Positions 50,040 to 53,072 of a stretch of 64,000 bases of DNA are shown here, piece by piece. A program made the translations under genes and the position numbers. The stretch is from Escherichia coli. Its GTDB lineage: Bacteria; Pseudomonadota; Gammaproteobacteria; Enterobacterales; Enterobacteriaceae. The notes under the pieces were generated by a model. It worked only from the letters and a program-made list of their open reading frames with translations. It did not search any database and was not told where the DNA came from. Location of the stretch: NCBI RefSeq assembly GCF_016903815.1, contig NZ_CP069973.1. One strand, written 5' to 3'. Position 1 is the first letter of the stretch. The number at the start of each line of letters is the position of its first letter.

Positions 50040-50267
50040 ATGTTGAAAATTGATGCTATAGCGTTTTTTGGCAGCAAAACAAAGCTTGCCAATGCCGCAG
50101 GAGTTAGGCTGGCAAGCGTTGCTGCATGGGGGAAACTGGTTCCTGAAGGTCGCGCGATGCGTCTACAGGAGGCATCCGGCGGGGAACTTCAGTACGACCC
50201 CAAAGTTTATGACGAATATCGTAAGGCAAAGCGGGCGGGGCGGTTGAACAATGAAAATCACCCCTGA
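50040..50267 (+). CDS. dicC: Cro-like regulator (DicC/YdaS family)
   Basis: 75 aa; FGSKTKLANAAGVRLASV...LVPEGRAMRLQEASGGELQYDPKVYDEY matches YdaS/DicC. Confidence 0.8.
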   Translation: MLKIDAIAFFGSKTKLANAAGVRLASVAAWGKLVPEGRAMRLQEASGGELQYDPKVYDEYRKAKRAGRLNNENHP

Positions 50268-50802
50268 ACAGGTTTGTGAGGCTCTGGATGCCTGGGTATG
50301 TCGACCAGGAATGACACAGGAGCAAGCGACGATATTAATCACGGAAGCATTCTGGGCTCTGAAAGAACGCCCGAACATCGATGTTCAACGCGTCACGTTT
50401 AATGATGGCGAGGTTGATCAACGGGCGCTGGGCGTTAACCGGGTGAAGATATTCGAACGCTGGAAAGCTATCGACACCAGGGATAAGCGGAAAAAATTCA
50501 CGGCGCTGATTCCGGCAATTATGGAGGCTATCCGAATTAGTGATTTCAGGTTGTATCGTGAGATCAGTGATGGAAAAAGCATTACGTACATGATCGCCGG
50601 ATTAAACAAAGAATATGGCGATGTGGTGGAGTCCGGGCTGCTTTTTGCGGATCCAGCTGTTGTGGAACGTGAGACTGACGAGCTTATAGAAAAAGCTATT
50701 GCTTTCAAGCATGCGTATCGTCAGCAATATCAATATTACTTTGCAGATAAACAAATGTCTGCCAGGGGTTTGTATGAGTATCGATGCACTACGATGGGCT
50801 AA
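50251..50802 (+). CDS. YdaT-like protein (CII-position regulator/toxin family)
   Basis: 183 aa; KFTALIPAIMEAIRISDFRL resembles recalled YdaT; position after cro analogue. Confidence 0.6.
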   Translation: MKITPEQVCEALDAWVCRPGMTQEQATILITEAFWALKERPNIDVQRVTFNDGEVDQRALGVNRVKIFERWKAIDTRDKRKKFTALIPAIMEAIRISDFRLYREISDGKSITYMIAGLNKEYGDVVESGLLFADPAVVERETDELIEKAIAFKHAYRQQYQYYFADKQMSARGLYEYRCTTMG

Positions 50803-51814
50803 AAAGGTGAAAACCGGCAGTTCATCCAGTAAGTCTGTATTGACCTGGCTTGCTGATATGTGCGGTGCCGATTTGTGTGCATACCCGTCTGTATCTGCAC
50901 TGGCAGAAGTAACGGAACTGAACAAAAAGACTGTGCAGGACAGCTTACGACACCTGATGGAGATTGGGTTAATTGTTGATACCGGTGAGAGAAAAGGCAG
51001 AACAAAGCAAATTGTGGTGTACCGACTTATCGGTGTAGAAGAAAGTGTTGCCGAGCCTGAATACACCCAAAAACGGGAGTCTTTAAAGGTGGGTAAAATT
51101 GGTGCTGTTAATAAAAACAGTACCGAAAATGGTTATGTTTCAGCACAAAACAGACCCAAAAACGGAACTCTTAGCTGCATGGAAAATAACCAAAGACACC
51201 CAAATTTTCCATCAAAGACACCCAAAAACGGATCACGGAACCCAAAGGAACCCAAAGATCTAAACCCCACACATAACGCACGCGAGAGTGCTCCGACCAG
51301 TGAGCAGGAAGTTTTGTCGTTACAGGCAGCACCCCTTGTATTCCTGGATGGCCTGAGCGAACCCATCGGAAAATTTCCGATGACCGATAGCTGGTATCCG
51401 TCACGGGATTTTCGACGACGGGCTGCGTTGTGGGGGATGGCTTTGCCGGAGACAGAATTTACACCTGCTGAACTTGCCGCCTTCCGGGACTACTGGGCAG
51501 CGGAGGGGAAAGTGTTTACGCAGATTCAGTGGGAGCAGAAATTCGCCCGTCACGTAAATCACGTCAGGGCGCAGGTTAAACCAGTCAGCAAGGGGGTAAA
51601 CCATGCAGCAGCACCAGGTGGCACCGCATCACGGGCAGTTCAGGAAATTCGGGCAGCACGTGAGCAGTGGGAACGTGAAAACGGATTTATCAGCGACGGA
51701 AACGGTCTGGAAGCTGTGGGAACTCATGGGGGAGGTTTATTCGAACCGCTGGACCCAGAAGAACGGGGCCGCACCTTCGAAGCTCTGGATTGCACAGATT
51801 GGCGCGATGACTGA
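50774..51814 (+). CDS. Replication initiation protein (O-like; N-terminal HTH, DnaT-like C-terminal region)
   Basis: Start at ATG 50774 (MSIDALRWAKKV) with RBS; C-terminal YWAAEGKVFTQIQWEQKFARHVN resembles DnaT-type domain. Confidence 0.6.
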   Translation: MSIDALRWAKKVKTGSSSSKSVLTWLADMCGADLCAYPSVSALAEVTELNKKTVQDSLRHLMEIGLIVDTGERKGRTKQIVVYRLIGVEESVAEPEYTQKRESLKVGKIGAVNKNSTENGYVSAQNRPKNGTLSCMENNQRHPNFPSKTPKNGSRNPKEPKDLNPTHNARESAPTSEQEVLSLQAAPLVFLDGLSEPIGKFPMTDSWYPSRDFRRRAALWGMALPETEFTPAELAAFRDYWAAEGKVFTQIQWEQKFARHVNHVRAQVKPVSKGVNHAAAPGGTASRAVQEIRAAREQWERENGFISDGNGLEAVGTHGGGLFEPLDPEERGRTFEALDCTDWRDD

Positions 51815-52268
51815 GCAGCAAATCCGACAGGTCTGCCGCCAGTGCATGGACCGCTGCCGGGCGGGTGAAACATGGCCTCCGGACCTGGCTGAGTTTGTGG
51901 CGCTGATTTCAGAAAGCGGGGCCAATCCATTTGGCCTGACGGTGGATGCTGTGATGGAGGAGTACCGCCGCTGGCGTGATGAGTCCTGGCGATATGACGG
52001 AAGCGACAAATATCCGTGGCCTCAGCCTGTGCTGTACCACATCTGCCTCGAAATGCGTACCAGAGGGATTGAGCGCCAGATGACGCAGGGTGAGTTAAAA
52101 CGACTTGCAGAACGGCAACTGACGAAATGGGCAAAGCATGTTGGTAACGGGATGAGTGTTCCGCCAGTGCGACGACAACTGGAAGGGGCGAAACACCCGC
52201 AAGGGCCAACGCCAATTGAACGGCTGAAACAGGAATACGAACGCCGGAAGGCAGCTGGTTTTATTTGA
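51603..52268 (+). CDS. Lambda P-like replication protein (helicase loader family)
   Basis: LPPDLAEFVALI...VMEEYRRWRDESWRYDGSDKYPWP parallels lambda P (LPNVSELVDMVYEYCRKRGLYPDAESYPWK); start ambiguous because of the 212-nt overlap with the O-like gene. Confidence 0.55.
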   Translation: MQQHQVAPHHGQFRKFGQHVSSGNVKTDLSATETVWKLWELMGEVYSNRWTQKNGAAPSKLWIAQIGAMTEQQIRQVCRQCMDRCRAGETWPPDLAEFVALISESGANPFGLTVDAVMEEYRRWRDESWRYDGSDKYPWPQPVLYHICLEMRTRGIERQMTQGELKRLAERQLTKWAKHVGNGMSVPPVRRQLEGAKHPQGPTPIERLKQEYERRKAAGFI

Positions 52269-52283
52269 ATCTGAGAAACGATT

Positions 52284-53072
52284 TTGTCGGAGGAAATTTT
52301 AATGGAAACCGTATTTGACGCACTGAAAGCAATGGGAAAAGCCACATCGGTAGAACTGGCCGCGCGACTTGATATCAGTCGTGAAGAGGTTCTCAACGAG
52401 CTGTGGGAACTCAAAAGAAATGGCGTCGTTGATAAAACTGGTCACACCTGGTTTCTGGCTGGCGAAGGTGAATCCCGGGTAACCGAAGAGCGGCCAGTAA
52501 AATCTGAAGCACAGGATATGCTGACCGGGGAGGTCGAACAAAAAGTTACCGCAGACATGATGATTGAGTTTATCGGTCAGGATGGTGCTAAAACGTGTGA
52601 GGAACTGGCGGGTAAGTTCGGCGTCAGTACTCGCAAGGTTGCCTCCACGCTGGCGGTGGTAACCGCAACGGGGCGGCTGGCACGCGTTAATCAGAACGGT
52701 AAATTTCGTTACTGCATGCCGGGCGATAATTTACCAGCAGAGCCGAAAGCCGCGCTGGTAACGGAAAGTGATGGTAAGGCCTTTCCTCAGCCAGCAGGTG
52801 CTGCGTTACCAGTCCGGGAAGCCGCAACACAGGAAGAAATTAAAACAGAAACTGTGGCGGACATTGTGCAGCCGTTGCCATCGTTTACCGAAACGCAAGC
52901 AGATGAGCTGATTTTTCCGTCCCTTCGCAGGGCAAACCTGGCGCTGCGCAGGGCGAAAAGTGATGTTCAGAAGTGGGAGCGAGTCTGCGCCGCGCTGCGG
53001 GAGCTGAACAAGCACCGGGATATTGTTCGACAGATTAGTGATTCTTCCCGCCGTGTTGTATCGGAAAAGTGA
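52284..53072 (+). CDS. Hypothetical phage protein with two winged-helix-like segments
   Basis: 262-aa ORF; repeated [15 protein letters not shown] and [19 protein letters not shown]-like segments. Confidence 0.5.

Follow-up and report, generated by a model that had tools for sequence, protein, structure and literature searches.

A conserved out-of-frame overlap between the replication initiator and helicase-loader genes of a Rac-like Escherichia coli prophage

Two replication genes in one stretch of DNA

The window analysed here, a stretch of 64,000 nucleotides (nt) of the Escherichia coli contig NZ_CP069973.1, contains a lambdoid, Rac-like prophage with two adjacent replication genes, an initiator gene ("O-like") and a gene for a predicted helicase loader of the lambda P family ("P-like"), which share 212 nt of DNA out of frame (51603-51814). 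The initial annotation had noticed this overlap from the letters alone, and both the list of open reading frames (ORFs) and the raw sequence agree with it, as the O-like frame runs to the TGA at 51812-51814 and the P-like frame is open from the ATG at 51603. Each P codon starts one base after an O codon, and position 3 of the P codon corresponds to position 1 of the O codon. There is good reason to regard the overlap as a real and old dual-coding arrangement with the loader translated from ATG 51603. Both frames are conserved with a constant offset and each bears its own footprint of selection, so the maintained (programmed) overlap listed among the options in the initial annotation is the one that the data favour. 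The region is 100% identical in E. coli strain 7/2 and other strains.

Conservation of the overlap across genomes

Of 5,426 complete E. coli genomes, 1,252 contain the stretch 51300-52300, with at least 80% of the query matched in 1,248. In a set of 57 distinct close sequences sharing 88-100% identity, both frames survive in 56, with a P product of 220 or 221 amino acids (aa) and an overlap of 209 or 212 nt, while the remaining variant has a premature stop at P codon 75. A scan of viral contigs returned only near-identical loci of the E. coli type (93-100%), which served for substitution counts among close relatives and not for depth. The diversity needed was supplied by a species-level scan with one genome per bacterial species, which returned 28 loci from Escherichia, Citrobacter, Klebsiella, Pluralibacter, Phytobacter, Kluyvera, Leclercia, Pectobacterium, Prodigiosinella, Erwinia, Dryocola, Serratia, Rouxiella, Yersinia, Samsonia, Limnobaculum and others.

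The 22 intact loci, from 22 Enterobacterales species, share a constant frame offset and overlap over 149-227 nt, typically 212-215 nt. In Citrobacter phage Chris1 the overlap is 215 nt long, and in the Vibrio phages D62 and 199E37-1, whose loaders are only ~30% identical, it is 212 and 194 nt long, respectively. In total, the junction occurs with the same frame relation in about 25 other species and in the Vibrio phages, and both frames are open and conserved in these diverged relatives. The alignment of homologues, which had been proposed as a check at the outset, shows in addition that protein-level conservation in the P frame starts upstream of 51726.

Selection in both reading frames

Phase-specific variability changes from the signature of the O frame to that of the P frame near 51700, close to the boundary between the two parts of the overlap termed B and C in Table 1. 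In part B, deep comparisons show O third positions as the most variable, a pattern that covers the motif SRAVQQIRAAREQWER. Fourfold degenerate O third positions, which are P second positions, contain 46% A and 10% G in this part versus 22% A and 34% G upstream in the initiator gene. Taken one by one, 23 of 24 loci show the skew (Wilcoxon tests: A excess, p=3e-7; G deficit, p=2e-7; pooled, and in that form inflated, p ~4e-25), which persists beyond +33 nt from the P start. Moreover, among close relatives, sites that are non-synonymous in both frames vary at 1 of 36 positions in part B, versus 39 of 134 and 31 of 150 in the flanking single-coding DNA.

In part C, the P-frame phase signature dominates. 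Here, fourfold P third positions, which are O first positions, contain 48% G and 11% T versus 30% G and 23% T in P-only DNA, with a G excess in 23 of 24 loci (Wilcoxon p=8e-7 for the G excess and 3e-5 for the T deficit; pooled p ~7e-13, subject to the same inflation). This skew is the usual first-position coding bias plus the avoidance of stops. Codon choice in the P frame also favours rare codons where they result in Glu in the O frame, namely TCG for Ser (10 of 12, expected fraction 0.15) and AAG for Lys (19 of 22, expected fraction 0.34). Phase signatures, fourfold composition and Glu-favouring codon choice thus reveal selection in each frame within the overlap. The composition tests at fourfold sites replaced a first shuffle test for the openness of the O frame, which was conditioned on the observed stop and was weakly significant (Fisher p ~0.01).

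The two coding layers interleave. According to structure prediction, the conserved or folded element of each protein overlies a disordered stretch of the other: the O helix RAVQEIRAAREQWERE overlies the polar leader of P, and the first domain-II helices of P overlie the acidic tail of O.

The helicase loader and its translation start

The product of the P-like gene is, by its sequence, a predicted helicase loader of the lambda P family. It matches Pfam PF06992 (Phage_lambda_P) with 59.3 bits versus a cut-off of 26 (E=5e-16, aa 55-188 on profile positions 27-161 of 162), it is ~19% identical to lambda P, and a phmmer comparison with the solved lambda P structure 8v9t gives E=0.0035 over loader aa 72-193. 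Full-length homologues of 212-223 aa occur in many genera, and among homologues with 42-91% identity the N-terminal half is best conserved in the block MGEIYSNRWTxKNGAxPSxLWIAQIG (aa 42-68). In the AlphaFold2 (AF2) model (mean predicted local distance difference test score, pLDDT, 77), residues 1-26 are disordered (pLDDT <50), helices extend from residue 29 to 181, and a C-terminal helix spans residues 204-217. This layout of a flexible N-terminus, helical domains II and III and a C-terminal helix is comparable to that of lambda P, as judged from the sequence match and the model without superposition, with the domain definitions of PMC12661323. Lambda P likewise has a flexible N-terminal segment before domain II, and its domain I (residues 1-29) is, according to PMC12661323, a probably disordered 'N-terminal lasso' folding onto DnaB. 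The leader of the loader (aa 1-~28), rich in Gln, Ser, Thr, Asn and Pro, occupies the same position.

The start of this protein is, with considerable confidence, ATG 51603. In every locus, an upstream ATG is located 31-42 codons before codon 42, with a Shine-Dalgarno (SD)-like motif 5-9 nt ahead of it, and this motif recurs at the equivalent position in each diverse locus and all 57 close variants. In most relatives it reads GGAGGT, which corresponds to the O-frame Gly-Gly codons GGA GGT. Its predicted duplex energy with the anti-SD sequence is -11.8 kcal/mol in the window and -8.7 on average over 25 loci, against a background with a mean of -2.7 kcal/mol and a first percentile of -9.7, while the mean values at codons 42 and 69 are -4.7 and -4.3. 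In six loci (L103, L104, L105, L106, L107 and L110), the upstream ATG is the sole ATG, GTG or TTG between the SD motif and W-x-x-W, barring the ATG of codon 42 and the codon before it, and in L105 it is the only start codon in the entire open P frame. Moreover, conservation upstream of codon 42 extends to Ala36, Trp37, Leu39 and Trp40, where all four Ala codons and five Leu codons are in use. Such synonymous variation at conserved residues implies protein-level selection in the P frame upstream of codon 42. The AF2 model places Met42 inside the helix 29-46 (pLDDT ~85). No mRNA hairpin that would hide the loader start was detected, since folding energies were no lower than those of shuffled sequences (z ~0) and no common pairing was found; a hairpin at this site would have implied coupling to the translation of the initiator.

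Two internal codons, GTG 51675 and ATG 51726, had been suggested in the initial annotation as the true start. The GTG is not conserved, and a loader that starts at ATG 51726, with an overlap of 89 nt and 41 upstream P codons that are untranslated and open by accident, appears improbable despite several features in its favour. An ATG occupies codon 42 in 23 of 25 loci, and there is a weak SD-like TGGGA 6-7 nt ahead of this codon. The leader lacks a conserved sequence, and most resamplings of O codons leave the P frame open upstream, which makes its openness alone weak evidence. However, codon 42 is disfavoured as the sole start because protein-level conservation in the P frame, embodied in the Ala-Trp-x-Leu-Trp motif, begins upstream of 51726. 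Furthermore, this codon would lie in the middle of a predicted helix, L105 and Vibrio phage D62 have CTG in its place, leaving them only the upstream ATG, the SD sequence at the upstream ATG is conserved and far stronger, and the A-rich, G-poor composition of O fourfold sites extends through the whole leader. The ATG of codon 42 is, therefore, more likely an internal Met codon of helix 1 than a start. Additional initiation at this codon, producing a short isoform besides the long one, would refine the reading with a start at 51603 rather than compete with it and is less improbable, though still unlikely: both ATGs are conserved, each with some SD-like sequence, and both lengths occur in public annotations, but the SD at codon 42 falls in the top 20% of the background and is hence not distinctive, a hydrophobic residue is expected there on structural grounds (lambda P has Ile at the aligned column), and the shorter product would lose half of the predicted helix 1. 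The start chosen for E. coli by the Prokaryotic Genome Annotation Pipeline (PGAP), ATG 51807, which overlaps the initiator stop as ATGACTGA with an overlap of 8 nt, is scarcely credible, even though all E. coli records inspected carry it and its geometry resembles the usual ATGA-type coupling of lambda. It is ruled out because the most conserved block of the family (aa 42-68), with its clean P-frame phase pattern and saturated third positions, would be removed. Homology to the Pfam family already begins at aa 55, and codon 69 is CTG, TTG, TTC, TGC, CTC or CTA rather than a start codon in 9 of 25 loci. An ordinary coupling junction (ATGA, or an overlap of 1-8 nt) is accordingly not what is found at this locus, where the ATG adjoining the stop is unconserved and conserved coding sequence lies upstream of it.

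Two further explanations concern the initiator frame rather than the loader start. The initial annotation had also considered that a frameshift extends the O-like C-terminus; a sequencing or assembly indel, or a pseudogene, that artificially carries the initiator into the loader gene has next to no probability left, for although some relatives are truly damaged (L101, L112, L113 and 1 of the 57 close variants), the identical junction in hundreds of independent complete genomes, with 1,248 E. coli genomes carrying it, and its persistence from genus to genus and as far as Vibrio phages, whose synonymous sites are saturated, refute it. Programmed ribosomal frameshifting in the overlap, which would produce an initiator-loader fusion protein, is very unlikely. 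The frames do overlap over 212 nt and some database proteins carry both Pfam domains (P0119: PF06992+PF17948), but passing from O to P requires a +1 (or -2) shift rather than the common -1, the context of the O stop (GAC TGA G) offers no re-pairing, and the loader has a strong, conserved start site of its own, while the fusion entries are rare, isolated and for the most part unnamed predictions, for which indels are the simpler explanation. The -1 relation, slippery heptamer and stimulatory element characteristic of programmed frameshifting were not found when the sequence was inspected by eye, with no formal scan for slippery sites.

Fusions of the loader domain with DnaT, DUF1376 or DUF1627 are present in the database proteins P0084, P0103, P0119, P0032 and P0095, and probably stem from indels or from gene-calling artefacts, located at the overlap or the downstream junction. 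As for damaged copies of the module, the P frame of L101 (Leclercia adecarboxylata NCTC13032) changes over to the O frame within the overlap, a sign of an indel, and L112 (Citrobacter sp. On2M) and L113 (Ca. Symbiopectobacterium) have truncated loader frames.

The initiator and its tail

The initiator is 'O-like' by function and position and not by family. It contains a DnaT domain (Pfam PF17948, E=6.5e-17, 61.5 bits versus a cut-off of 25, aa 201-267) and an HTH_36 domain (E=3e-4), which are the only two families that the Pfam scan returned, with no match to Phage_rep_O (PF04492). Its start is most likely ATG 50774, taken from PGAP and homologues; the PGAP coordinates in the identical strain 7/2 are the same. 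In an AF2 model of the tail fused to the loader, O aa 287-302 (RAVQEIRAAREQWERE, nt 51632-51679) form a helix with pLDDT ~86, whereas the remainder of the tail is predicted to be disordered, with pLDDT <40 in the acidic part. The tail in part C contains Gly and Asp at 14% each, Glu at 10% and Lys at 1%.

Upstream of the loader SD, the initiators of different loci are mutually non-homologous, and they become alignable from about the SD onward. According to Pfam scans of the upstream ORFs in the fetched loci, the tail is carried by HTH_36 + DnaT proteins (the window, L096 and L103), by DnaT proteins with other N-termini, by DUF1376 + DnaT (L005), DUF1376 alone (L105) and Phage_rep_O (L102, E=7e-27), by proteins with a domain similar to lambda O's C-terminal domain (L108 and Vibrio phage 199E37-1) and by proteins with no Pfam match (L104, L106, L110, L114 and L115). 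At least five N-terminal architectures end in one tail because the ~70 aa of the tail are encoded inside the P gene. Sequence comparison thus indicates that the exchanged unit is the loader gene including its 5' end, and that any initiator located upstream reads into it and ends with the same ~70 residues.

The arrangement suggests a mechanism in which the loader would use its own ribosome-binding site (51590-51597) and ATG 51603 inside the 3' end of the initiator gene, with the same 212 nt read by ribosomes in two frames. Translation of the loader would begin independently at this accessible site and not via frameshifting. The tail of the initiator would be a putative loader-docking element, and the overlap would hold two interacting partners together in one unit that recombination could not split during the shuffling of phage modules. 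More specifically, and tentatively, the initiator helix and acidic tail may serve as a portable adaptor for binding to this loader subfamily or to its complex with DnaB, the overlap having evolved to keep both surfaces inseparable. If so, an origin-binding protein that recombines just upstream of the loader ribosome-binding site would gain the matching docking peptide automatically, and the presence of one tail on at least five unrelated initiator architectures would be explained.

Several points weigh against this picture of a 221-aa loader and a docking tail. The protein starting at ATG 51603 is a prediction, and the case for it rests on sequence comparison and predicted structure. Its leader (aa 1-~28) keeps only its composition, with no conserved sequence, and codon 42 is almost invariably ATG and is the PGAP start in several genera, so a shorter product is possible, alone or additionally. 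From the window alone, the open frames are not improbable: when codons were resampled with the O protein fixed, the P frame was open in 91% of trials, and with the P protein fixed, the O frame was open to the stop in 30%. The significance of the overlap comes only from other loci, because openness in the window alone is within chance. The statistical tests on these loci, in turn, treat related sequences as independent, which inflates the pooled p-values; the per-locus paired tests are safer and reduce this problem without removing it. Regarding the tail, a homologue search with its 79 aa alone returned nine E. coli fragments only and is uninformative on its distribution. Finally, the AF2 fusion design (tail, six GGGGS repeats and loader, with a paired alignment of 22 loci) recovered the tail helix and the disorder of the acidic part and is uninformative on contacts.

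Comparison with known phage replication modules

The module shares with the O-P pair of lambda its gene order and roles, a Phage_lambda_P loader, and repeats (candidate iterons here) inside the initiator gene. In lambda, it is the C-terminal part of the initiator that recruits the loader. However, the lambda genes overlap by 4 nt (ATGA), whereas here ~70 codons are common to both genes out of frame, and O of lambda belongs to Phage_rep_O, in contrast to the HTH_36 and DnaT-like domains of the present initiator. In phage HK639, an ordinary 4-nt ATGA junction joins the initiator and a loader of the P family. Phages of the phiV10 / epsilon15 type likewise have an initiator with an HTH domain, a repeat linker and a DnaT-like domain, directly upstream of a PF06992 loader, and the phiV10 protein possesses a comparable repeated region at the protein level (NG..PKNG). 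Nevertheless, their junction is 4 nt long, the initiator stops ~25 aa past the DnaT domain and lacks the helix-plus-acidic tail, and the N-terminal region of the loader is encoded in non-overlapping DNA. Since the P-family loaders of lambda, HK639 and phiV10 have the 4-nt ATGA junction, the long overlap marks one subfamily of the loader.

Out-of-frame overlaps are classical in phages, as exemplified by A/B/K and D/E of phiX174 and Rz/Rz1 of lambda, and disordered or compositionally biased segments are reported to be common in overlapping regions. The present case resembles them in that two proteins are encoded by one DNA stretch in different frames, with such segments in both. It differs from the embedding of a small novel gene in an older one, in that it is a terminal overlap of two old, widespread and functionally interacting genes, neither of which is confined to the overlap. 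Among double-stranded DNA phages, it is uncommon for two old, interacting genes to share a long conserved out-of-frame overlap.

In Vibrionaceae and their phages, VdhL loaders, which are weakly similar to lambda P, adjoin a conserved upstream gene similar to lambda O (PMC11087808). The two-gene junction of the window is found again in Vibrio phages D62 and 199E37-1, the comparison with the VdhL loaders being one of gene arrangement. The word 'overlap' does not occur in PMC11087808, and no description of this overlap was found in the accessible literature, which includes that paper and the structural study of lambda P (PMC12661323) and leaves out most subscription journals. Thus, while the component families and overlapping phage genes as such are already known, and the long-form ORF is annotated in some database records, a deeply conserved out-of-frame overlap of ~200 nt between initiator and helicase loader, with the initiator tail embedded in the loader gene, appears to be undescribed.

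Annotation of the loader and significance of the overlap

Public annotations disagree on the length of the loader. PGAP gives 153 aa from 51807 in E. coli and 180-181 aa from the equivalent of 51726 in Salmonella, Klebsiella and Citrobacter, phage authors give 136-140 aa (PPompW and Chris1), and older GenBank records and gene calls from metagenomes give 212-223 aa. The loader is systematically under-annotated as 51807-52268 and its equivalents in L003-L006, L001 and L116, and in Vibrio phage D62 it is labelled 'hypothetical protein' and begins 333 nt too late. The E. coli model of PGAP omits 68 residues, so that the leader is lost together with the best-conserved block of domain II, and this error touches more than 1,200 complete genomes of E. 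coli, which often carry several copies, as well as many other Enterobacterales and Vibrio phages.

The overlap is, moreover, a natural system for the question of how structured and disordered segments interleave to fit two proteins in one sequence. If the tail is a loader-docking element, the overlap would explain how origin-binding domains are swapped without breaking the interaction between initiator and loader. The idea lends itself to a direct test with single-base changes silent in one frame.

Locus organization and additional observations

The coordinates of the features discussed above are given in Table 1. The genes of the region are arranged in the order CI-like repressor (minus strand), Cro-like, YdaT-like, initiator, loader, DUF1627, DUF977, DUF4406 and ead/Ea22-like.

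Table 1. Features of the initiator-loader junction, in positions of the window.
Feature	Position	Strand	Description
Initiator ("O-like") gene	50774..51814	+	346 aa; HTH_36 aa 36-67, linker, DnaT-like aa 201-267, 79-aa C-terminal tail
Iteron-like direct repeats inside initiator gene	51060..51256	+	core ACCCAAA(AACGG)
Shine-Dalgarno of P-like gene, AAGGGGGT	51590..51597	+	5 nt before ATG 51603
P-like helicase loader gene	51603..52268	+	221 aa as proposed; stop TGA 52266-52268
Overlap part B	51603..51710	+	O: conserved helix RAVQEIRAAREQWERE; P: polar, predicted-disordered leader (aa 1-~28) and start of helix 1
GTG codon 25 of P	51675	+	in frame; not conserved
Overlap part C	51711..51814	+	P: conserved domain II start WKLWELMGEVYSNRWTQKNGAAPSKLWIAQIG; O: disordered Gly/Asp/Glu-rich acidic tail to TGA 51812-51814
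ATG codon 42 of P	51726..51728	+	PGAP start in Salmonella, Klebsiella, Citrobacter (180-181 aa)
ATG codon 69 of P	51807..51809	+	PGAP start in E. coli; overlaps O stop as ATGACTGA

The direct repeats of the initiator gene are located between the HTH and the DnaT-like domain and consist of 3 copies of ~24 nt (core ACCCAAAAACGG), together with the shorter copies CAAAGACACCCAAA and GGAACCCAAA. By analogy with ori-lambda, which sits inside gene O, they are probably the candidate origin of the phage. At the 5' end of the initiator gene, the YdaT-like gene (50251-50802) overlaps the proposed start ATG 50774 by 29 nt, and a longer initiator ORF is also open from TTG 50699.

The extreme C-terminus of the initiator, LDCTDWRDD (51785-51811), resembles the ends of lambda O, LDLTNTDWIYGVDL, and of the O-like protein of HK639, LDFNNTDWAYGVIR; the segments compared are LDCTDW here, LDLTNTDW in lambda O (L007) and LDFNNTDW in HK639 (L120), and neither lambda O nor the HK639 protein overlaps its loader. 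An aromatic residue with acidic surroundings is retained at this end in most relatives. The Trp of LDCTDW hinges on a synonymous Ile codon of P, many relatives have another residue there, and the likeness may for this reason be a coincidence; it could also be a shared docking motif, and it is not relied on here.

Those E. coli genomes that have the module contain up to 6 copies (median 1), with typically 3-5 in strains of the O157:H7 type, and several near-identical initiator-loader pairs thus coexist in one cell. In Vibrio sinaloensis DSM 21326, a 560-bp contig (L099) encodes a loader fragment 74% identical to that of E. coli, versus ~30% for genuine Vibrio phage loaders, and looks like contamination or a very recent transfer. 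'Actinobacillus phage vB_Apl-pPE4', which matches the E. coli module at 89% nucleotide identity, likewise resembles a contamination or transfer.

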